From contig JBDKJD010000004.1 of NCBI GenBank assembly GCA_039796775.1, positions 6,103 through 70,102 on the forward strand: DNA of 64,000 nucleotides, given 5' to 3'. Numbering within the stretch: position 1 is the stretch's first letter; the number at the start of each line of letters is the position of its first letter. This stretch comes from Candidatus Parcubacteria bacterium. Lineage in GTDB: Bacteria; Patescibacteriota; Minisyncoccia; Phycocordibacterales; UBA5272. The position numbers and the translations under genes were made by a program. Below the pieces are notes generated by a model. It had not been told where the DNA came from. It saw only the letters and a list, made by a program, of their open reading frames with translations, and ran no database searches. This document shows, piece by piece, positions 50 to 63,809 of this stretch.

Positions 50-96
50 GAAAACAGTATATAGTTACTGGTTACTAGTTGCTAGTGGACACACAG
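50..96 (-). promoter_or_regulatory. tandem-heptamer leader element (CCACTAG CAACTAG TAACCAG TAACTAT ..TATACT-6nt-ATG)
   Basis: 7-nt periodic xAACxAG units ending in a TAnACT hexamer 4-7 nt before the ATG; same architecture at 2992, 3313, 4018, 6008, 46504, 48078, 58604, 62081, 62376. Confidence 0.5.
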
Positions 97-2991: not shown

Positions 2992-3030
2992 AGAAATAGT
3001 TACTGGTTACTAGTTGATAGTTAATAGTTT
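2992..3030 (-). promoter_or_regulatory. tandem-heptamer leader element upstream of ndk
   Basis: mRNA sense CTATTAA CTATCAA CTAGTAA CCAGTAA CTATTTCT-ATG; no Shine-Dalgarno. Confidence 0.5.
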
Positions 3031-3108
3031 TAATGTTTCTATACTAACAAAAACAAAGCAAAAAACCAAGCAACAATGCTCGGTTTTTTGTTATTTCTCT
3101 TTGAATCT

Positions 3109-3312
3109 TTAGTGCGCGACGTATGGAAGGAGTCCCATGAATCTTGCGCGCTTGATAGCATTAGCGAGAGCTCTTTGATTCTTAGCTGTTAGCCCTGTCT
3201 TTCTGCGATTAAGCATACGAGCGTGAGGGTTCAAGAACTTTACTAGAATCTCAGTGTCCTTGTAGTCGATAAACTTTATATTGTTTGCATTAAAGTGATC
3301 TTGTTTTTTCAT
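3109..3312 (-). CDS. rpsR: 30S ribosomal protein S18
   Basis: IDYKDTE...RRKTGLTAKNQRALANAIKRARFMGLLPY signature. Confidence 0.9.
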   Translation of the reverse strand: MKKQDHFNANNIKFIDYKDTEILVKFLNPHARMLNRRKTGLTAKNQRALANAIKRARFMGLLPYVAH

Positions 3313-3352
3313 AGAGATAGTTAATGGTTGATAGTTACTAGTTAATAGTTTT
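3313..3352 (-). promoter_or_regulatory. tandem-heptamer leader element upstream of rpsR
   Basis: sense AACTAG TAACTAT CAACCAT TAACTAT CTC-ATG. Confidence 0.5.
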
Positions 3353-3553: not shown

Positions 3554-4012
3554 TTAGAATGGGATGTCGTCGATGTTAACATTAGCATCTCCATAATCGA
3601 TCGTATCTAAATCTGGCGCTTGGCTAGCAGCAGCTTGTTGCTGAGGAGCGACAGCGTCGCTACCTGCTTGTGCTAGGCCACCTGACTTAGGACCGAATTG
3701 TACGGCGTCTGCTACAATTTCTGTTCTATACTTTTTCTCATTAGTAGTTTTGTCATCCCAGCTACGTGTCTGGATACGACCTTCTATCATGACACCTTGT
3801 CCTTTCTTAAGGTACTGAGCACTTGTCTCTGCCTGACGACCGAAGACTACGATGTTGTGATACTCAACTTGTTCTTGTTTTGCACCATTTGCATCTTTGT
3901 ACACACGGTTAGTAGCGAGAGAAAATGATGTTACTTTATTTCCATTTGGGAGTGATCTCATTTCTGGATCACGAGTCAAATTTCCATAAAGATATACTTT
4001 GTTTAAATACAT
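3554..4012 (-). CDS. ssb: single-stranded DNA-binding protein
   Basis: OB-fold SSB core, Gly/Gln-rich linker and acidic C-terminal tail ...DDIPF. Confidence 0.9.
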   Translation of the reverse strand: MYLNKVYLYGNLTRDPEMRSLPNGNKVTSFSLATNRVYKDANGAKQEQVEYHNIVVFGRQAETSAQYLKKGQGVMIEGRIQTRSWDDKTTNEKKYRTEIVADAVQFGPKSGGLAQAGSDAVAPQQQAAASQAPDLDTIDYGDANVNIDDIPF

Positions 4013-4077
4013 ACGAAGTGAGAGTAGTTAGTTATTAGTGATCAATGATTAGTATAACATCAAACACATGCTACAAA

Positions 4078-5161: not shown

Positions 5162-6007
5162 TTATTCTGGTATAGAAAACATTCTCTTCACATTCTCTAA
5201 CACCTGTATACGCATCGTCTCCATATCTTCGTTTCTGAGCACTGCCATACGAGCAACCACTTCTTGCACTTTAAGTGAATCATTTCTCTCCCCTCTGAAT
5301 GGAGCAGGTGTCGCATATGGGCTATCTGTCTCTGCAATAATCATAGTTGGGGGTAAAAATCTGACAACATCATCGTAATCTTTGGTAAACGTAATAACTC
5401 CGGAGAAGCTCATAGTGAATCCAATCTCAATAAACCGCTTAGCTATGTCGATGTCTCCTACAAAAAAATGTGCATTGCCTCGCAATTTAGTCCCGTACTT
5501 TTTCTTGGCGCCTTCAAGCATAAAAAGCATGTCTTCATACGCATCCATCGTGCCTTTACTTGGTCTACCGTGGAGCATGAGGGGTAAGTTAAGTTCTACA
5601 GCAAGATGTATCTGCTCTTCAAAAATTCTCTTCTGTCTGTCTGCTTCAGCGTCTTTATTCCAAGATAAGCCCTTCTCTTTCTTATCTCTATCAAAAAATG
5701 TCTCAACATAGTGGTAATCGAGTCCACATTCCCCTATTGCGACAACCTTTTTACTCTTAGCTAAGTCGCGATAAAACCCTGCATCAAATTCCTCCGTGAC
5801 ATTGTCTGCTGGATGATGCCCGACACTTGCGAAAACATGCTCACACTTCTCAGCTAAAGCAACCGCTTTTGTACTCTCTTCTTTATCTGTACCAACGGTT
5901 ATAGCCCCAACACCATAGGACTTCATAGAAGCGAGCACCTGGTCTCTATCTTCATCATACTTTCTGTCATGGAGATGCGCATGGGCATCAAAGAGAGCGT
6001 AGTTCAT
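5162..6007 (-). CDS. tatD: TatD-family metal-dependent hydrolase/DNase
   Basis: N-terminal FDAHAHL, internal GECGLDYH and later His/Asp ligands typical of TatD amidohydrolase fold. Confidence 0.85.
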   Translation of the reverse strand: MNYALFDAHAHLHDRKYDEDRDQVLASMKSYGVGAITVGTDKEESTKAVALAEKCEHVFASVGHHPADNVTEEFDAGFYRDLAKSKKVVAIGECGLDYHYVETFFDRDKKEKGLSWNKDAEADRQKRIFEEQIHLAVELNLPLMLHGRPSKGTMDAYEDMLFMLEGAKKKYGTKLRGNAHFFVGDIDIAKRFIEIGFTMSFSGVITFTKDYDDVVRFLPPTMIIAETDSPYATPAPFRGERNDSLKVQEVVARMAVLRNEDMETMRIQVLENVKRMFSIPE

Positions 6008-6050
6008 GGGGGGGGTAGTTATTAGTGGTTAGTGGTTAGTGGTTAGAAAT
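6008..6050 (-). promoter_or_regulatory. tandem-heptamer leader element upstream of tatD
   Basis: sense CTAACCA CTAACCA CTAACCA CTAATAA CTACCCCCCC-ATG. Confidence 0.5.
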
Positions 6051-6150
6051 AAGTATACATCATACTCATTAGGTGCAATCGGTGACATCTTCTTAGATAA
6101 AAGAAAACAGCTCATATGGGAGCTGTTTTTGGGGACAGATTTTTCATCTG

Positions 6151-11721: not shown

Positions 11722-11748
11722 AATGGAAGAGATGTTAGAGCTTAGACA

Positions 11749-14700
11749 TTAGACAACAGATAAATACACCACACCAGAAGAAAGTTCGACCACGTTCTCG
11801 GTAAGCGATATGTCGACTTTAATTTCTTTTATTTTGCAAACAGAAAGAAGTGAAGACATGTCTCCAAAATCAAGATCTTTTGAGATAGTGAGAGTTATCT
11901 CATCTCCAGGGACGAGCCCTGCTTCTTTGCGAGCATCCTGTACTGCGCGCATTACCTTACGGAGATCCCCCTCTTTCTGCAACTCTTCGGTGATAGTTGT
12001 ATCTAAGGTTACATCTTCTACTTGGCTTACATCATACTTAACCTCTTTCACATTAAGCTCATCAAGTATGAGCTGTTTATATTCATCATCTAGTTTTTCT
12101 TTAAATGTGACAGAAAGGAGAGGCTGCTTAACATTAAGCTTAAGAGCTGTTCTTTTCATGAGTCCTAGGGAGACAAGTTCACGAGTCTTCTTCATCATAG
12201 TGAGAACTTCTTCTTCGATCATTCCTTCGCTTGGCCAGCTCTCTAGGTGTACAGATTCTTTCTCTTTGCTCACCGTCATATAGATACGCTCAGCCATAAA
12301 CGGCATAACAGGCGCTATAGCTTTTGAGAATACATCTAGGGCGTATGATAGTACTCCGTAGGTTTCTTTCTTTATCTCCTCACCTTCATCTCCTTTAAGT
12401 GCGCCTCTTGTGCGGCGTACATACCACACAGAAAGATCATCCACGAACTGATCGACTCCTCGAGTTGCTTCATCAAGAGTGTAGGAGTTATACCCACTAG
12501 TTGCGTCTCTTACAACCTCATGGACACGACTAAGTATCCACCTGTCTAGTACATTGTTTCCGACAGACATTCTTTCTGCACCGTCTATCTTATTCATCTC
12601 GTAGAGAGAGAGCACATTCTCAAGACGCTGTATAACTTTTTTGTACACCTCTTCCACACTCTTATCTGAGAACTCAACACTCTCACCCTTAATAACTGGC
12701 GATGATAAAAGAAAGTATCTAATTGCATCAACACCGAATTTTTCTACAAGTAGAAGCGGGTCAGTATAATTTTTCTTACTCTTACTCATTTTCTCTCCAC
12801 CTTCTGCAAGCACCACGCCATTTACAATGACATGTCTGTACGGCGCCTTATCAAAGAGTCCGACACTTAGATTGATGAGTGAATAGAACCAACCTCTTGT
12901 CTGGTCCATCCCTTCTGCGATAAAGTCAGCAGGAAAGTTTTTATCAAAGAGTTCTTTGTTCTCAAATGGATAATGAAGAGAAGCGAAAGGCATAGACCCA
13001 GATTCGTACCAACAATCAAACACATCAACTACACGCTTGTATTCTTTCCCATCAATCTCTAAGACAACCTCATCTATATACGGACGATGAAGATTAATAG
13101 CTCCAGTCTCATCTCTTGGGACGAGCAATAGATCAAGCTTTCTCACTTCTGCATTGCCTGGATAAAGCTTCGCACCTTCATGTTCGTCATCATGTATCAA
13201 CTCTTCTTCTGTTGTGAGAGTAGCTCCAGCAAAAATCATACGCGCAGGACCCCCGTGGGTAACGATGAGAATATTTTTTCCTTCATAGTTCTTCTCAAGA
13301 TCACAGAGTGCGGCCACGGAGCGATGCATCATCTCTTCGTGAGTCTCTCCGCCTTCTACACGAGTATCATATGCAACGAATGATCCAGGAAGAGAGGCGA
13401 AGTATTCATCCCTACTCTTCCCGTCAAAGATTCCCATGTCATACTCTCTCAGTCTTTCATCAAACTCAACCTTAACGCCAAGGATACTGCCAACAATCTC
13501 TGCTGTTTCCTTTCCACGAAGTACAGGAGACGCGACAATCATGTCTATCTTTTTGTCCTGAAGAAGTAGAGCGGCGTCTGTTGCCTGACTCATCCCCTTT
13601 TCCGTAAGATGATTATCTTTATTGGTGCCTTTATCTAAAATATTATTCACATTGCTCCACGCTTCTCCGTGACGCATGACATAGTAGGTGTTCTTTGGTT
13701 TATCTTTGCGAAGCTGCGCGAGCTCTTTCAAGGAACCCAAAACTTTTATATCTCCATCTTCGCTCTTCCACACAGGAAGTGGTGCCCCCCAATACCGTGT
13801 GCGAGATACAGCCCATTCACGAGCCCCTTCTAACCACTTGCCGAAACGGCCATCTTTAATATGTGACGGTGTCCAACCAATCTTACTATTTTCTTCTAGG
13901 AGTTTGTCTTTGATTTTTGGAACATCGATAAACCATGACGATGTCGCATAGTTAAGAAGCGGTGTAGAACATCTCCAGCAGAGTGGATATGAGTGGACTA
14001 TCTTATGCTTCTCAAAAAGCTTCCCGTTATGGGCGAGCCATTTAATGATTTCAATATCAGCTGATTGAGTATCATCCTTCTTCTTCACTTTCATTCCAGC
14101 AAAATCAGTCACAGCATCTGTGAATGTTCCATCCATCTTCACGTGCTTAATAATTGGTATCTTGTTAGCTTTTGCTAATTCCATGTCATCTGCTCCAAAG
14201 GCTGGAGCTTCGTGCGCGACACCTGTTCCTGTGTCGTCGGTGATGAAGTCTGCGTGCCATATCTTCCAAATGTTTTCTTTGTTCTCAAGAGAGACGTCTT
14301 TGAAGTAAGCAAATGGTGGGAGGTATGACTTACCTATCAAACTATTAACATCTACTATTTCTCCTACGGTAAACACCTTTCCTTTGAAAGTTTCTTCCAC
14401 TCGACTTTTAGCCAGAATAAAGGTTGCACCTTCTTCCCCTTCTACATTCATTACTTTTACATACTCTATATCTTTATGGATTGCGAGTGCTGTATTTCCA
14501 GGAAGAGTCCACGGTGTTGTAGTCCACGCGAGAACATATGTTCCCAGCTCATCACAAAGCTCAAACTTCACAGTTACTGAGAGATCTGTGACATCATGAT
14601 ACTCAAGACCAACCTCTGATTGAGCAAGCGGGGTCTCACATCTCGGACAGATATGCATCATCTTATTCCCTTCATATGCGAGACCCTTCGTATAGAGTTC

Positions 14701-45423: not shown

Positions 45424-45496
45424 CTTTTTAGGGTGGGCGATGAGGGATTCGAACCCCCGACCTTCGCAGTGTAAATGCGCTGCTCTACCAACTGAG
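45424..45496 (-). tRNA. tRNA-Val (UAC)
   Basis: acceptor GGGCGAT/ATCGCCC, D-arm GCTC-AGTTGGTA-GAGC, anticodon loop TTTACAC, T-arm GGGGG-TTCGAAT-CCCTC. Confidence 0.75.
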
Positions 45497-45568
45497 CTAA
45501 TCGCCCTTTTTCTTTTATGCAATAATACTACACTATTTTGTTTTTTTTTGCTAGTATGATAAACACTT

Positions 45569-45640
45569 GCCCTTGTAGTTAAATGGATATAACTGCGGAC
45601 TTCTAAGCCGTTATTCTAGGTTCGATTCCTAGCGAGGGCA
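45569..45640 (+). tRNA. tRNA-Arg (UCU)
   Basis: acceptor GCCCTTG/CGAGGGC, D-arm GTTA..TAAC, anticodon loop CTTCTAA, T-arm CTAGG-TTCGATT-CCTAG. Confidence 0.6.
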
Positions 45641-45647
45641 CAACAAA

Positions 45648-46269: not shown

Positions 46270-46503
46270 CTATTCGTAAATAACTTCTCTCCCTAGTCTG
46301 TCTTCTAATTTTCTGCCAAGCATTCTGCGTGCATCCCCTGTGCCGCATACCAACACTTCACCGTTCCCAATTTTGTGAATGATTGAATCTAGAATGTCGT
46401 TGATTGCATGAGTGATGTCTTTTTCTATAAGCACTTTGCCGAGCGGTATAACTTCGCCGTCAAAGGTACAGTAATCTTGATGAATACAAAGATGATGCTT
46501 CAT
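46270..46503 (-). CDS. hypothetical small protein
   Basis: 77-aa ORF directly preceded by heptamer leader element. Confidence 0.35.
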   Translation of the reverse strand: MKHHLCIHQDYCTFDGEVIPLGKVLIEKDITHAINDILDSIIHKIGNGEVLVCGTGDARRMLGRKLEDRLGREVIYE

Positions 46504-46566
46504 GGTAACAGTGTACCGTTACTAGCTACTCGTTACTAGTGGAGATCTATTGCGCGCAGAAACAAT

Positions 46567-48077: not shown

Positions 48078-48406
48078 AACGATAGTGTATAGCGATTAGT
48101 CTTTGGTGACTAGTGGACACCATCTTATGTAACTGGGTGTAATTATTTACACAATAAGAACTCTTTCTCTTTACTTCTGTCTTTGCTTCTAAACTTTTCA
48201 TCACTTAGTACATGTATTCTTTGGTACATGAGTAGTAGGGAATGGGGGGTTGAAAGAGGTCTCTTGCGGAATCATGATTTTGTAGAGGGGAATGCAAAAC
48301 AGACGACGCTTCGTGCCGACCATATTTTGGGCGGGAATTTGAATTCCGAATTTTGGCGGGGATTGTGGGACGAAGTTGGAACACTTTTAACAAAACAAAA
48401 GGTTTG

Positions 48407-49260: not shown

Positions 49261-49366
49261 ACAAATCTGCCTCGTCACGTTGTTCCTCGAAGCAGATTCG
49301 CGACCCCTATTCTCATCTCACGCAAACCACGCAGGTGGTTTGCTACTGCGCCTCGCTTGTGAATAA

Positions 49367-49400
49367 AAAACCCAGTAACTACTGGGTTTTTTATTCAAGC
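49367..49400. terminator. perfect hairpin AAAAAACCCAGTA-ACT-ACTGGGTTTTTT (bidirectional) flanking GC-rich cassette; preceded by second hairpin GCAAACCAC-GCAG-GTGGTTTGC (49321-49342)
   Basis: seen directly. Confidence 0.55.
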
Positions 49401-49405
49401 GGCAA

Positions 49406-50489
49406 GCGGTGTATTTTAAAAATAGCTCGAACGGAATTCTGCCCTCGCCGCGCTTTGCGCGGCTCGGGTGTGGCGGAGCAAAAATGAGCGGCTCCGCCGC
49501 GCACACTGACAATTTTAAGTTTTTCTTTGGCGGAATACAAATTCGAGCGTGCGGAGCACGCACAAAATAGTTCTTTACAAAAAGAAGCGCGCCAGAGGTC
49601 CGGTGGACATGGCGCGCGTGGTTGGAAGCGGCGCACAGCTGTGCTTCCGCTAGGCGCTAGGAGAGGGCGCTGGCAAGTCGAGCGACGATCCCGCGATATT
49701 TCACGAGTTCGTTTTTGGGGATTCGACACTCGTTCTCGCCTTCGAGTGCAGCGACGGCGATTTGCGCATTCGGAAACAAACGCACCCACGTCCGCCGTTG
49801 AACCTTCTCGGTGAGCTCGATGATCTGTTTGCCGTCGATGAAGCCACTGGACGAAAACATGTCCTCGTCGGTGAGAACGATCTCGTGGCGAACGGCTTCC
49901 GTGCCGATGTCCTCATCGAAGTAGAGCTTGCCGAACTCCATCTCGCTATCCCACTCGCGGAAGTTGTCCTTGGAGGTCGGCTCCAGTTCGGGGACGAGCG
50001 ACATCATGAGCGCCTGAAGCTCCTTGGCGGTGTACACGCCGCCGGTTTTCGGGGCGATGAAAATCCACGGTGTGGCTCCAGTAGCCGTCCCTGCCTGGTA
50101 GATAGTTCCGCTCCGGCGCGCCGACGATCGTGATGTTCGGATTGTTTTGCAGTGCTTTTCGAACGTGCGTGAGTTTGCTCATCGTGTGGTCCTCCTTTCA
50201 AGGTACAGGGGTTGAATTACCAATCTAAGCGACATGCCTGGATTTCAAATCAAGGTAGCATATTACACAATAAAAGTCAATAGGCGGCAAGATTGCCGAC
50301 TATTGAAAAAACCTTATGAAAAAATTTCTTTTGCCCTTACAAAATATGGTTTGAGCCGATTTGTTTTTAGGTTCTTTGGCAGTTTGGAGTGTGCGCGGCG
50401 GAGCCGCTCATTTTTGCCCCGCCACACCCGAGCCGCGCAAAGCGCGGCGAGGGCAGAATTCCGTTCGAGCTGTTTTTAAAATACACCGC
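49406..50489. mobile_element. GC-rich (~60 %) ~1.1-kb cassette bounded by ~102-bp near-perfect terminal inverted repeats (49406-49507 and 50388-50489; 2 mismatches), carrying one frameshifted ORF and no transposase
   Basis: revcomp of right repeat equals left repeat except t/c and a/g; each repeat contains internal palindromes (GCCGCGC-TTT-GCGCGGC); interior composition foreign to the ~36 % GC host. Confidence 0.5.
49657..50182 (-). pseudogene. GC-rich hypothetical gene inside the IR cassette, split by a frameshift (ORFs 49946..50182 and 49657..50037)
   Basis: strong RBS AAGGAGGACCACACG-ATG; MSKLTHVRKALQNNPNITIVGAPERNYLPGRDGYWSHTVD.. then frame change near ttttcatcgccccgaaaaccggc into ..FIAPKTGGVYTAKELQALMMSLVPELE..ARLASALS. 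Confidence 0.4.
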
Positions 50490-50496
50490 ATATGCA

Positions 50497-50550
50497 TTTA
50501 AAACCACAAGATTCTTTTTCGTGGTTTTAAATGCATATGCGGGCCATATG
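50497..50550. other. 20-bp-stem perfect palindrome GCATATGCATTTAAAACCAC-loop-GTGGTTTTAAATGCATATGC immediately outside right IR
   Basis: seen directly. Confidence 0.6.
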
Positions 50551-58023: not shown

Positions 58024-58095
58024 GCTCTCGTAGTTCAATGGATAGAATGCAAGTTTGCGGTACTTGCGATCTAGGTTCGATTCCTGGCGAGAGCA
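58024..58095 (+). tRNA. tRNA-Arg (GCG)
   Basis: acceptor GCTCTCG/CGAGAGC, anticodon stem GCAAGT/ACTTGC with loop TTGCGGT, T-arm CTAGG-TTCGATT-CCTGG. Confidence 0.6.
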
Positions 58096-58098
58096 CAG

Positions 58099-58336: not shown

Positions 58337-58603
58337 TTACTTCGCAACCTTAGCTACTGCTTTTGCTAGACGGGATTTCTTACGGTCTGCTTGGCCTTTT
58401 TTGATTGTGCCACGCTTAGCTGCCTTGTCGAGCGCCTTGAATGCTAATGATAAATCTTTTTGTGCAGTTTTTGAATCTTTTGCGATAACGTCTTTGCGTA
58501 CAACTTTTACTGCTTCTTTCATAGTACGACGAAGAGTGTCATTAAACACTCTTTTGCGAGTACTTACACGAATTTGACGTTTTGCTGTTTTGGTAATTGC
58601 CAT
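58337..58603 (-). CDS. rpsT: 30S ribosomal protein S20
   Basis: Lys/Ala-rich helical 88-aa protein MAITKTAKRQIRVSTRKRVFN.. typical of S20. Confidence 0.85.
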   Translation of the reverse strand: MAITKTAKRQIRVSTRKRVFNDTLRRTMKEAVKVVRKDVIAKDSKTAQKDLSLAFKALDKAAKRGTIKKGQADRKKSRLAKAVAKVAK

Positions 58604-58761
58604 AAATGCTTGATATTAGTTACTAGTGCCTAAAGTTTTTGAATAGTATGATACTAACACATTTTTAATATTATGCAAAGAAAAAAGGAATAAACACACC
58701 TAACTCTAAGCAATAATATAACCCTCTAGCCACTAATCACGAACGACTATATACTGTTTTT

Positions 58762-61003: not shown

Positions 61004-61131
61004 TGATGGCCTCCATTAAAAACATGATAATCCTCTTTCGAGGGCCTATGTGGATACTCTCACATTCCTCAACCTCTTTCAAGTCTTGCATTTTTCTATC
61101 ATCTACTGTCTACTGTCTTTAATCTACTCTT

Positions 61132-62080: not shown

Positions 62081-62120
62081 CCACTAGCAACTAGTAACTA
62101 GTAACTGTAAACTAGAGCCC
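62081..62120 (+). promoter_or_regulatory. tandem-heptamer leader element in plus orientation (CCACTAG CAACTAG TAACTAG TAACTGT AAACTAG AGCCC-ATG)
   Basis: same element as at minus-strand genes but in sense orientation on plus strand, abutting a small ORF. Confidence 0.5.
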
Positions 62121-62279: not shown

Positions 62280-62408
62280 TCAGGTAGCGGACTGGCGTTT
62301 TTGTCAAATATTTGATAGGATAATGTGACGTTATTTGTCTTTTGTTTTTAGAAATATGTATTCTGTATTTTACTAAGAACTAAAAACTAGTAACTAAAAA
62401 CTATTCCA

Positions 62409-62777: not shown

Positions 62778-63809
62778 ATGAATAAACCTTATCTGATAAG
62801 TGGTGGAATAGGGACACTTCTAATAATCATCTCCTTGATCTATTATTTCTATTCCAACAATGAAACATCACGTAATCAATGTGAGCAGGACATCATGATA
62901 TGTGCTGATGGGACAACGGTCGGAAGAGTGTATCCATCGTGTGAATTCGATATTTGTAAGGATTCAATATCCCCTATTATCACACAACAATTAGAATCAA
63001 AACCTATTGATGAAGCGAGTCTCTTGGAACAAGTCGCAACCAAAACACCAAAAGAAATACTACCCAAAAAAGAACGAGTTCCTCTCTCTGTTGCTCCCCC
63101 AAAAGACAACACACTAATTACTGTCATCGAAAAGACTCTTGGCTCTTTTGTGTCTTTGTTTTCTCAAAACAATACCCCTTCTTCATCAACAAATAACCAA
63201 ACCGTACCAAATAGTAACAACACTCCAACAAAAACATATAACGATGAGCGCTACTCAGTTAATAATGGCACAATTATAGATAGTAACGGTAACGCTGTCG
63301 CAGCCCTCCCACCTTCATCGTATACATCAACCAGTTCTGGTTCTTCATGGGAAACTCATACAGTGAACGCTATTAGTGTTGGATCAACAACTCCTGTGGT
63401 TGATGGTGTTCCTGTTGAAGGACAGGTTGGCAAATATTATATAAGTGAAAATTCTTTTGGTAATAGAGAGTTGTGCGAATTCTCAAACAGAATATACATA
63501 TTCGACTCTATCACTAATGATAAAGTGTTACTCTACGAAGAAAACACTTCAACCCTTTCACAAGACGATGAACGTGCATGTAATAGCGAAATATTCCTCC
63601 TAGCAACAGAGGAACAAAAACTTATTTTTAAATATCACACCATTAACACTAATATGATCTGTGAAAGCACGTGGAGTGCGCCTCATAATACATGGTATTT
63701 GAATGTAACCACCATCACTTCATCATCACGATACCCAATCAGCAACGAACGCTATGAAGATGCTGAGACAAAAGAACTTGTCTGTCGGTCCAATCTTGAG
63801 ACACAATAA
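62778..63809 (+). CDS. hypothetical membrane-anchored Ser/Thr/Asn-rich secreted protein
   Basis: N-terminal TM (GIGTLLIIISLIYYFY), Cys pairs and low-complexity S/T/N tracts. Confidence 0.45.
   Translation: MNKPYLISGGIGTLLIIISLIYYFYSNNETSRNQCEQDIMICADGTTVGRVYPSCEFDICKDSISPIITQQLESKPIDEASLLEQVATKTPKEILPKKERVPLSVAPPKDNTLITVIEKTLGSFVSLFSQNNTPSSSTNNQTVPNSNNTPTKTYNDERYSVNNGTIIDSNGNAVAALPPSSYTSTSSGSSWETHTVNAISVGSTTPVVDGVPVEGQVGKYYISENSFGNRELCEFSNRIYIFDSITNDKVLLYEENTSTLSQDDERACNSEIFLLATEEQKLIFKYHTINTNMICESTWSAPHNTWYLNVTTITSSSRYPISNERYEDAETKELVCRSNLETQ

Follow-up and report, generated by a model that had tools for sequence, protein, structure and literature searches.

Tandem heptanucleotide arrays in front of genes of a Parcubacteria genome fragment

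Heptad arrays precede genes of the window

Here, we analyzed a stretch of 64,000 nt from a Candidatus Parcubacteria bacterium (contig JBDKJD010000004.1 of assembly GCA_039796775.1, positions 6,103 to 70,102; the whole stretch is called the window), in which short arrays of tandem 7-nt units (heptads) stand directly in front of genes. A preliminary description made from the sequence alone had listed ten such loci, namely a partial gene starting at position 49, ndk, rpsR, ssb, tatD, ruvX, rpsT, two small open reading frames (ORFs) at 46503 and 62121 and a tRNA-Lys gene. Reading the sites in gene orientation confirmed the listing: at all ten loci, tandem heptads lie directly upstream of the start and in sense orientation to the downstream gene. 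The units are of the types TAACTAG, CAACTAT, TAACCAG and CTAACCA; degenerate arrays are found at ssb, ruvX and rpsT. A simple scan for heptad arrays yielded 13 strand-hits in the window, compared with ~1.9 (maximum 6) in dinucleotide-type shuffles. Printing and classifying all upstream regions of the window revealed three sites beyond the ten, at recO, ruvA and fpg (Table 1).

The array-bearing genes had also been described as devoid of a Shine-Dalgarno (SD) sequence, and this proved correct. Counting GGAG, GAGG or AGGA at −17 to −5 as an SD-like motif, we found one in none of the array-bearing genes of the window and in only 3/54 window genes, all of them others (starts 6704, 37401 and 43184). 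No complementary partner is found near the window arrays, and a role as hairpin arms was ruled out, as their duplex energies were no better than those of shuffled sequences (z above −2.4).

Expression signals in the host lineage

A search with the SSB protein retrieved 80 related loci at 61–90% identity, all from Paceibacteria, 'Nomurabacteria' or Parcubacteria metagenome-assembled genomes (MAGs). Together with the window, they form the sample for the clade-wide counts given below (1.36 Mb in total); single loci are named by L numbers where they have to be told apart. Judged by these relatives, the host is a member of a Paceibacteria/'Nomurabacteria' lineage of the candidate phyla radiation (CPR) with a tiny genome and hardly any use of classical ribosome-binding sites. 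SD-like 4-mers precede 13% of genes in close relatives (7% in controls) and 7% of genes in distant relatives (8% in controls). Among genes without a leaderless-type −10 box, AGGA/GGAG still peak at the canonical spacing of 6–8 nt in ~5–7%, and the canonical anti-SD is therefore probably retained in at least some species of the clade. The CCUCCU anti-SD is undetectable in about half of the Parcubacteria, and the ribosomal protein bS1 of CPR bacteria has only 3–4 S1 domains (Tsurumaki et al. 2022, PMC9297842). A 16S gene was found neither in the window or the related loci nor in the 11–16 kb Logan contigs looked up.

The dominant signal in front of genes is a different one. In the window and related loci, TAnA[CA]T shows a sharp peak 6–9 nt upstream of ATG codons. 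The matrix obtained from 156 aligned TAnA[CA]T sites represents an extended −10 element, TGnTAtACT, without a −35 signal, and a scan for E. coli-type −35/−10 promoters showed no enrichment. A −10 box ~6 nt from the ATG implies a leaderless mRNA, which would apply to ~30–38% of the genes of the clade. Many genes without any heptads share TAnACT 6 nt before the ATG, genome-wide, which corrects the preliminary description. Our literature search for leaderless, SD or heptamer work on Patescibacteria/CPR yielded nothing relevant.

Arrays within putative 5' leaders

At ndk, ssb, tatD and rpsT, a −10-like box lies upstream of the array, which would place the array within a 5' untranslated region (5' UTR) of ~30–45 nt. 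At ndk and tatD, the gene in front ends in a terminator-like hairpin (6104–6129 at tatD) with this box directly behind it, an arrangement that argues for a position of both arrays inside the 5' UTR. A TGnTAGTAT box 35–55 nt upstream of ndk is kept in most related genomes; the leader behind it is G-poor and heptad-periodic in many species, but not in all. The ssb orthologs carry a TACACT box after the rpsF stop codon, which is followed either by 6–8 nt and the ATG or by a heptad array of 35–55 nt and the ATG. Here, the heptad units vary by species (seven copies of CCATTAG, or ATCTAAA, TTACCAA, AGCTAAA, AAATTTA, GAAAATT, AAACTAG, TCTACAT and AATTACG). The ssb array thus resembles a segment inserted between promoter and start, of which the period is kept and the sequence is not. 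Since the TACACT box of ssb and the TGnTAGTAT box of ndk are conserved upstream, the latter after a terminator, we infer that leader-type arrays are transcribed. For rpsR, a clear −10 box was found on neither side of the array.

The C8 homopolymer between the tatD array and the ATG is a potential slippage tract; L004, the closest relative, has CCCC at this position.

In front of tRNA-Lys, the array probably forms a pre-tRNA leader of ~33 nt behind a weaker TG-TATTTT/TATTCT box. The other tRNA genes of the window (58024–58096, 45569–45641 and 45432–45506) have TGnTAGTAT 9–17 nt upstream of the mature 5' end, which implies very short pre-tRNA leaders.

Arrays within the spacer of a putative second promoter form

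At five window sites, hereafter called class b, the heptads are found upstream of the −10 box in a fixed layout of T-CCACTAG, two heptads, 6 nt, TAnACT, 6–7 nt and ATG. For 4–5 of these sites, this corresponds to the formula TCCACTAG-N20-TAnACT-N6/7-ATG. The sites precede the gene at 49, which is identified through L001 as LDcluster4/LOG-like, a 77-aa ORF without a Pfam match, ruvX, ruvA and a 52-aa ORF that is also present as a gene call in L082. The LOG-like gene has a 191-aa ortholog in many related genomes, with the same architecture upstream.

In the window and its relatives, CCACT[AG] precedes the −10 hexamer by exactly 27 nt in 21 instances; neighbouring distances are at background level. 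The element was present in 16/71 leaderless promoters without TGn compared with 0/144 promoters with TGn (Fisher p=6e-9), and the CCACT region could therefore substitute for the missing TGn contact; sigma region 4, the alpha subunit or an activator are candidate readers. The class-b consensus reads TnTCCACT(A/G)G-yAACTA-nnnACTA-nTnnCTA-TAtACT, with CTA in register at −24, −17, −10, −3 and, inside the −10 box, +4. In two class-b promoters (L002 and L040) the spacer is non-repetitive, so that heptads are not required for this architecture. A promoter upstream of CCACT, which would turn the class-b arrays into leaders, was ruled out, as no conserved box is found there, only T at −30 and −28. In the searched literature, neither TGn-extended leaderless promoters nor such promoters with TCCACTAG at 27 nt are described for CPR bacteria.

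A class-b-like promoter (CCACTTC...TACACT, 7 nt, ATG) also precedes the longest ORF of the window (62778–63809). The start of this ORF is uncertain, with the public gene call of an identical Logan contig beginning at 62895 (304 aa).

The two groups of sites divide what had initially been proposed as one element. A TAnACT hexamer 4–7 nt before the ATG is indeed present at the gene at 49, ORF 46503, ruvX and ORF 62121, and also at the previously unlisted ruvA; the arrays of ndk, ssb, tatD and rpsT instead have the box on their upstream side and not between array and ATG, and rpsR has no clear box. The interpretation as leaderless promoters with a heptad upstream element accordingly fits the 4–5 sites with CCACTAG exactly 27 nt before TAnACT and 6–7 nt from there to the ATG, and does not fit ndk, ssb, tatD, rpsT, rpsR and tRNA-Lys. 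The alternative offered at the time, an enhancer of translation in place of an SD sequence, is plausible for the leader-type group, but does not suffice as an explanation, given the array in front of a tRNA.

Table 1 Heptad arrays of the window and the putative promoter elements next to them. Positions are those of the window.
Feature	Position	Strand	Details
LDcluster4/LOG-like gene, class-b promoter	56-88	-	CCACTAG 82-88, CAACTAG TAACCAG TAACTA, TATACT 56-61, 6-nt gap, ATG 49-47
ndk, heptad 5' leader	2996-3029	-	AACTATT AACTATC AACTAGT AACCAGT AACTAT, TTCT, ATG at 2991
ndk, extended -10 promoter	3041-3049	-	TGTTAGTAT; directly after rpsR terminator hairpin 3059-3090
rpsR, heptad array	3317-3352	-	ATG at 3312
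ssb, degenerate heptad leader and extended -10	4018-4059	-	leader 4018-4040; TGTTATACT 4051-4059; ATG at 4012
tatD, -10 box, array and C8 tract	6008-6057	-	TATACT 6052-6057; CTAACCA x3 + CTAATAA CTA 6016-6046; C8 6008-6015; ATG at 6007
recO, nGTCTAA-type heptads	~11728-11762	-	start 11721; recO ortholog arrays in L004, L010, L041
77-aa ORF, class-b promoter	46510-46542	-	CCACTAG 46536-46542, TACACT 46510-46515, 6-nt gap, ATG 46503
ruvX, class-b promoter	48084-48116	-	CCACTAG 48110-48116, degenerate heptads, TACACT 48084-48089, ATG 48077; RuvX Pfam E=2e-23
rpsT, short degenerate array and extended -10	58609-58659	-	array 58609-58629 in ~40 nt leader; TGTTAGTAT 58651-58659; ATG at 58603; S20 Pfam
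ruvA, class-b-like promoter	58723-58755	+	CCTCTAG CCACTAA TCACGAA CGACTA, TATACT 58750-58755, 6 nt, ATG 58762; RuvA Pfam
fpg, TCTACTG-type array	61100-61129	+	abuts start 61132, within 40-nt divergent spacer
52-aa ORF, class-b promoter	62081-62113	+	CCACTAG 62081-62087, CAACTAG TAACTAG TAACTG, TAAACT 62108-62113, 7-nt gap, ATG 62121
tRNA-Lys, heptad array	62370-62404	+	ends 4 nt before mature tRNA-Lys (62409)

Properties of start-proximal arrays across the clade

The enrichment upstream of starts extends beyond the window. Self-similarity at lag 7 marked 51/550 upstream regions, compared with 2–8 regions for each other lag from 3 to 13. Likewise, periods of 7, 14 and 21 accounted for 136/266 intergenic tandem repeats detected by Tandem Repeats Finder in the window and related loci. 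As start-proximal set, we considered the 65 arrays within 25 nt of a start, which originate from 39/81 genomes. These arrays mostly comprise 4–5 units, and the distance from their end to the start is mostly 3–7 nt (mode 5 nt). A superstructure of period 14 is common.

On the sense strand, the arrays contain 7% G and 20% C, with C exceeding G in 47/65 arrays and G exceeding C in 12/65 (p=5e-6). NTG triplets are depleted (24 compared with 35.5±4.6 expected from composition), and 41/65 arrays contain CTA in phase at least three times. In addition, the arrays are locally more open than other upstream regions, with an unpaired probability of 0.64 versus 0.53 between −45 and +20 (p=5e-7). All three sense frames contain stop codons in 28/65 arrays (17.3±3.1 after column permutation), and all three antisense frames do so in 48/65 (21.4±3.5). 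Stops in all sense frames were therefore rejected as the reason for period 7: they are found in only 28/65 arrays, and the stronger antisense enrichment reflects the CTA core. A function of the in-phase CTA as primase sites on the lagging-strand template was ruled out as well, since the arrays are oriented with the gene regardless of the replication strand: they occur on plus-strand genes at 61100 and 62081, and the rplT arrays of L014 and L034 are on the opposite strand.

Conservation and turnover of the arrays

Comparison with L004 shows a well-conserved rpsR array in a spacer that is otherwise randomised. At tatD, a concerted unit change has taken place (three copies of CTAACCA in the window compared with four copies of CTAACCC in L004), which indicates homogenisation by slippage. 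The arrays further occur in 'dialects' such as AACTAGT, ATCTAAA/GTCTAAT and AATTACG, with exact 14-mers common to non-orthologous genes and different genomes. For example, six different genes in eight genomes are preceded by the AACTA(G/T)(T/C)AAC family, and five sites with ATCTAAAATCTAATGTCTAA are spread over three genomes.

Array length appears to be stable between close relatives. For rpsR of L016 and L019, the near-identical pair and the sole one aligned quantitatively, the arrays are of equal length and differ by one substitution; by eye, length is also equal for ssb in L012/L025 and L026/L030 and for rpsR in L023/L028. A metagenome scan with flanking anchors, aimed at strain-level copy number of the tatD array, returned 0 hits. 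Altogether, the patterns of conservation and length speak in favour of selection acting on the arrays, and against the behaviour of hypervariable contingency loci.

Heptads in other contexts and further features of the window

Heptads are not restricted to starts. The relatives contain G/U-rich UAG-type arrays after stop codons; these often pair with an A/C-rich array of complementary sequence on the other side of a GC-rich terminator hairpin. Such complementary pairs, with the UAG-type 5' and the CUA-type 3', were found in L034 (4250–4380), L031 (16517–16636), L037 (14486–14600), L050 (816–940) and L008 (14417–14573). The terminator-flanking pairs are predicted to fold into long stems with minimum free energies of −45 to −63 kcal/mol, and bidirectional terminator or processing modules are a possible function. 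According to crude gene calls, array density amounts to 0.34 per kb in convergent and 0.50 per kb in tandem spacers, and arrays are rare in divergent ones. Heptads thus appear to be a general intergenic building material in this clade, of which start-proximal G-poor arrays represent the commonest use.

In the window itself, purine-rich TAGAAnn heptads (147–170 and 2330–2360, minus-strand sense) are located directly after the stops of ndk and an RNase J-like gene. One of these arrays reads TAGAACG TAGAATA CAGAGTG TAGAATG and has a GC-rich terminator hairpin behind it; the other, CAGAACA TAGAGTA TAGAATA, lies within the hairpin CAGAACATAGA...TCTATGTTCTG.

Exact (TAACTAG)n arrays, some of them long, were also found in 38 IMG/VR contigs (L083–L120) with a GC content of 24% to 65%, and these repeats are therefore not confined to CPR bacteria. 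In some of the viral contigs, e.g. L087, L095, L099 and L117, inverted (TAACTAG)n arrays surround TATATATA. Phage mimicry was rejected as an explanation: given the range in GC content of the 38 viral contigs, the TAACTAG 17-mer is not CPR-specific and thus uninformative.

Besides the arrays, the window contains an island of ~1 kb (~49300–50250) with 50–59% GC in a genome of ~38% GC. It harbors a plausible 126-aa ORF (49657–50037, minus strand) amid many spurious overlapping ORFs, has no Rfam match and may represent foreign DNA or an assembly chimera. Downstream of the island, a near-perfect hairpin of ~60 nt (50484–50544) gave weak matches to miRNA precursors in a permissive Rfam scan and is just a stable inverted repeat. 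The Rfam scan of the window found only tRNAs.

A composite explanation and its alternatives

The reading we favour, with a probability of about 0.5, is a composite one. It builds on the observed anatomy, enrichment, orientation, conservation and composition of the arrays, which can be described as tandem heptanucleotides resembling the short tandemly repeated repetitive (STRR) sequences of cyanobacteria and placed in the last ≤50 bp before the functional 5' end of genes. The default promoter would be the extended −10 element TGnTAtACT, without a −35, located 6 nt before the ATG and giving rise to a leaderless mRNA. In one form (ndk, rpsR, ssb, tatD, rpsT, probably recO and fpg, and the pre-tRNA-Lys leader), the array would be situated between this promoter and an AUG 30–45 nt downstream. 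Being G-poor, stop-rich, locally unstructured and almost free of NUG, it could provide an open landing pad for SD-independent initiation, either of the 30S/S1 type or dependent on the 5' end, with the first AUG after the array being used. Such open, start-codon-free 5' UTRs would work in a similar way to G-poor, S1-dependent leaders of the omega type. In the other form (LOG-like gene, ORF 46503, ruvX, ruvA and ORF 62121), three in-register heptads between TnTCCACT(A/G) and a TGn-less −10 would belong to a second class of leaderless promoters, with a reader for the CCACT element. Slippage by 7 bp would create and homogenise the arrays of both forms, and selection would keep them.

Several findings weigh against this composite reading. 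All transcription start sites are inferred from −10-like boxes. Orthologs of ssb and ndk exist without periodic arrays, and the spacer-form arrays, which are expected to be untranscribed, share the strand asymmetry of the leader form. In the wider folding context from −100 to +20, the difference in unpaired probability is not significant (0.52 versus 0.48, p=0.10). Furthermore, an array precedes tRNA-Lys, and relatives have arrays at terminators and after stops, partly as complementary pairs, so that translation is not the sole role. Finally, 'G-poor and unstructured' leaves the period of 7, the CTA phase, the recurrence of 14–20-mers at unrelated genes and the tRNA leader unaccounted for, which keeps models of factor binding and of mostly neutral slippage alive.

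In the latter model, to which we assign a low though appreciable chance, the arrays are a mutational by-product, i.e. slippage-prone intergenic DNA without a dedicated function, in which selection only purges start codons, SD-like sequence and structure near starts. Heptanucleotides are the most abundant class of long simple sequence repeats in prokaryotes and possibly reflect a polymerase footprint (Mrazek 2007, as quoted in PMC4679880), and the concerted change at tatD is a hallmark of slippage. Array-free orthologs function, unit sequences are many, and arrays are also placed after stops, around terminators and in convergent spacers. Slippage without function would, however, be difficult to reconcile with arrays that persist at orthologous positions amid randomised flanks across species, with a spacing of exactly 27 nt between CCACT and the −10, with the strong strand bias relative to the gene and with identical 14-mers at unrelated genes of different genomes. 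The repeats are also imperfect (units differ at 1–2 positions), which is not suggestive of recent slippage. Binding by a trans-acting factor, one heptad per module, is an unlikely explanation; the arrays would in that case mark out the regulon, at the transcriptional or post-transcriptional level, of a protein with cold-shock-domain or S1-type oligonucleotide-binding (OB) fold or of another regulator that binds RNA or DNA. The strict period of 7 would fit with B. subtilis CspB, which binds one protein per heptamer (as cited in PMC4679880), and the 3–4 S1 domains of CPR bS1 (PMC9297842), the in-phase CTA core in 41/65 arrays, the frequent period-14 superstructure and the dialects common to unrelated genes and genomes point in the same direction. 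Yet a single genome can contain several unit families that are unrelated to each other (e.g. L030 and L034), arrays are found both in leaders and in probably untranscribed class-b spacers, and OB-fold proteins are weak in sequence specificity. A bolder version, which we consider quite doubtful, is a clade-wide 'heptad code' of 7- or 14-nt CUA-core units, read one per module by an OB-fold (S1/Csp-like) or dedicated factor that replaces the SD and also acts at pre-tRNA leaders and, via complementary UAG-type arrays, at 3' ends and terminators. If true, the arrays would be a trans-recognised expression signal and not merely open RNA.

A device at the promoter level throughout is likewise rather improbable. 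Here, repeated weak promoter-like or activator-binding units would tune recruitment or escape of RNA polymerase, comparable to TTTTGAT of the V. cholerae ctx promoter, for which heptad repeats are on record. In class b, the fixed register of heptads, CCACT and −10, seen only where TGn is missing, speaks in favour of this proposal, and the tRNA-Lys array suggests a non-translational role. Nevertheless, the leader-type arrays are located downstream of a conserved extended −10 box, and heptads are dispensable in L002 and L040 with their non-repetitive class-b spacers. The last heptad can be ruled out as the −10 box, its distance to the ATG varying from 4 to 9 nt. Phase-variable contingency loci, in which changes in copy number switch expression, have tandem repeats between promoter and start in the same way (7-bp repeats of hmw in H. 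influenzae, AGAT of uspA2 in Moraxella; as outlined in PMC4679880 and PMC12721329), and tatD has three perfect units and the C8 tract. This is nonetheless a very improbable explanation for mostly imperfect arrays with a fixed class-b spacing, with lengths kept in close pairs (aligned for L016/L019, judged by eye for the others) and with housekeeping targets (ribosomal proteins, ssb, ndk, ruvX, ruvA, recO and a tRNA). We attach equally little probability to a non-canonical SD/anti-SD interaction, in which CUA units would pair with an altered 16S 3' tail or another rRNA segment. The CTA core is common and CCUCCU is missing in about half of the Parcubacteria (PMC9297842), but CTA does not concentrate sharply at any distance from the ATG in the way that AGGA/GGAG do at 6–8 nt, units differ within and between genomes, and one array precedes a tRNA.

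Significance and comparison with known systems

CPR/Patescibacteria make up a large share of bacterial diversity, and their expression signals are almost unstudied. The present analysis suggests three routes of expression, i.e. leaderless extended −10 promoters, the TCCACTAG promoter class and heptad leaders instead of an SD. This could improve the annotation of start codons and operons in CPR MAGs, in which SD-tuned gene finders mis-call starts, and provide design rules for gene expression in or from CPR organisms. As a phylogenetically independent second case of heptamers before starts, with the same gene occurring with and without an array and with many dialects, the clade also renders the puzzle of these repeats testable.

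To call the element novel, as the preliminary description did, was an overstatement, since heptamer direct repeats abutting starts in SD-poor contexts have been known since 2015. TAACTGA repeats precede starts in Maribeggiatoa/marine Beggiatoaceae, some cyanobacteria and Bacteroidetes; in Beggiatoaceae, they are mostly forward, end 1 to few nt before the start and coincide with an SD in only ~10% of spacers (MacGregor 2015, PMC4679880). Ribosomal-protein genes are among the targets, and S1, cold-shock proteins (Csp) and CsrA have been discussed as readers (PMC4679880). Both systems consist of tandem 7-nt units (2–6 copies there) that are nearly all intergenic and forward and end few nt before the start, at the position of a rare SD. 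In both, the targets include ribosomal proteins and have no common function, the role of the repeats is unexplained, self-structure is not predicted and stops occur in forward frames. Unlike there, however, the units are TAACTAG, CAACTAT and the like, so that we are dealing with the same kind of element and not with the TAACTGA family. Many unit families exist in the clade, whereas related heptamers are rarely repeated in Beggiatoaceae. Further differences are the predominantly leaderless CPR host, the location of part of the arrays in a promoter spacer of fixed register and the complementary pairs that flank terminators in relatives.

Cyanobacterial STRRs are 7-bp repeats able to form intergenic hairpins (PMC2670836), and heptamers near the recF and recO starts of Nostoc PCC 7120 have been probed experimentally with no clear mechanism emerging (bioRxiv 10.1101/2022.06.06.494920). 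The arrays described here resemble them as intergenic 7-bp tandem repeats with several unit families per genome, some hairpins between genes and some copies within 30 nt of starts, e.g. at recO. Phylum and units are different, though, STRR arrays are often much longer, and neither a link to leaderless promoters nor a CCACT-N-TAnACT architecture has been described for STRRs.

With respect to possible working, the leader of tobacco mosaic virus, omega, provides a parallel. Omega is a G-poor enhancer with CAA/ACAAUUAC repeats, which binds S1 in E. coli and thereby acts in the absence of an SD. G-poor repeat enhancers of translation such as omega are said to have been treated by Gallie and Kado in 1989 and by Tzareva and colleagues in 1994. 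Common to both is an A/C/U-rich, near G-free and unstructured leader with short direct repeats right before the AUG. Omega is, however, viral, has 8-nt and 3-nt repeats and is experimentally shown, so that the resemblance does not amount to membership. Leaderless promoters of Actinobacteria and Deinococcus have a −10 TANNNT ~7 nt before the start codon; for leaderless-mRNA promoters, the work of Cortes from 2013 is reportedly the one to name. About one third of the genes of the clade as well as the class-b sites share with these promoters a −10 located 6–7 nt before the ATG, the lack of an SD and a weak or absent −35, but differ in the TGn extension or in the TCCACTAG element 27 nt upstream with heptad spacers.

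The hmw, uspA2 and ctx repeats are similar insofar as short tandem repeats lie between or upstream of promoter elements and the start, where theirs influence expression. Those of hmw and uspA2 are perfect, variable in copy number and associated with surface or virulence genes, in contrast to the imperfect, length-stable arrays at housekeeping genes described here, and the ctx heptads are ToxR-binding sites far upstream. Compared with all these systems, the lineage, the diversity of units, the link to a largely leaderless genome and the CCACT-N-TAnACT form of the promoter are new.

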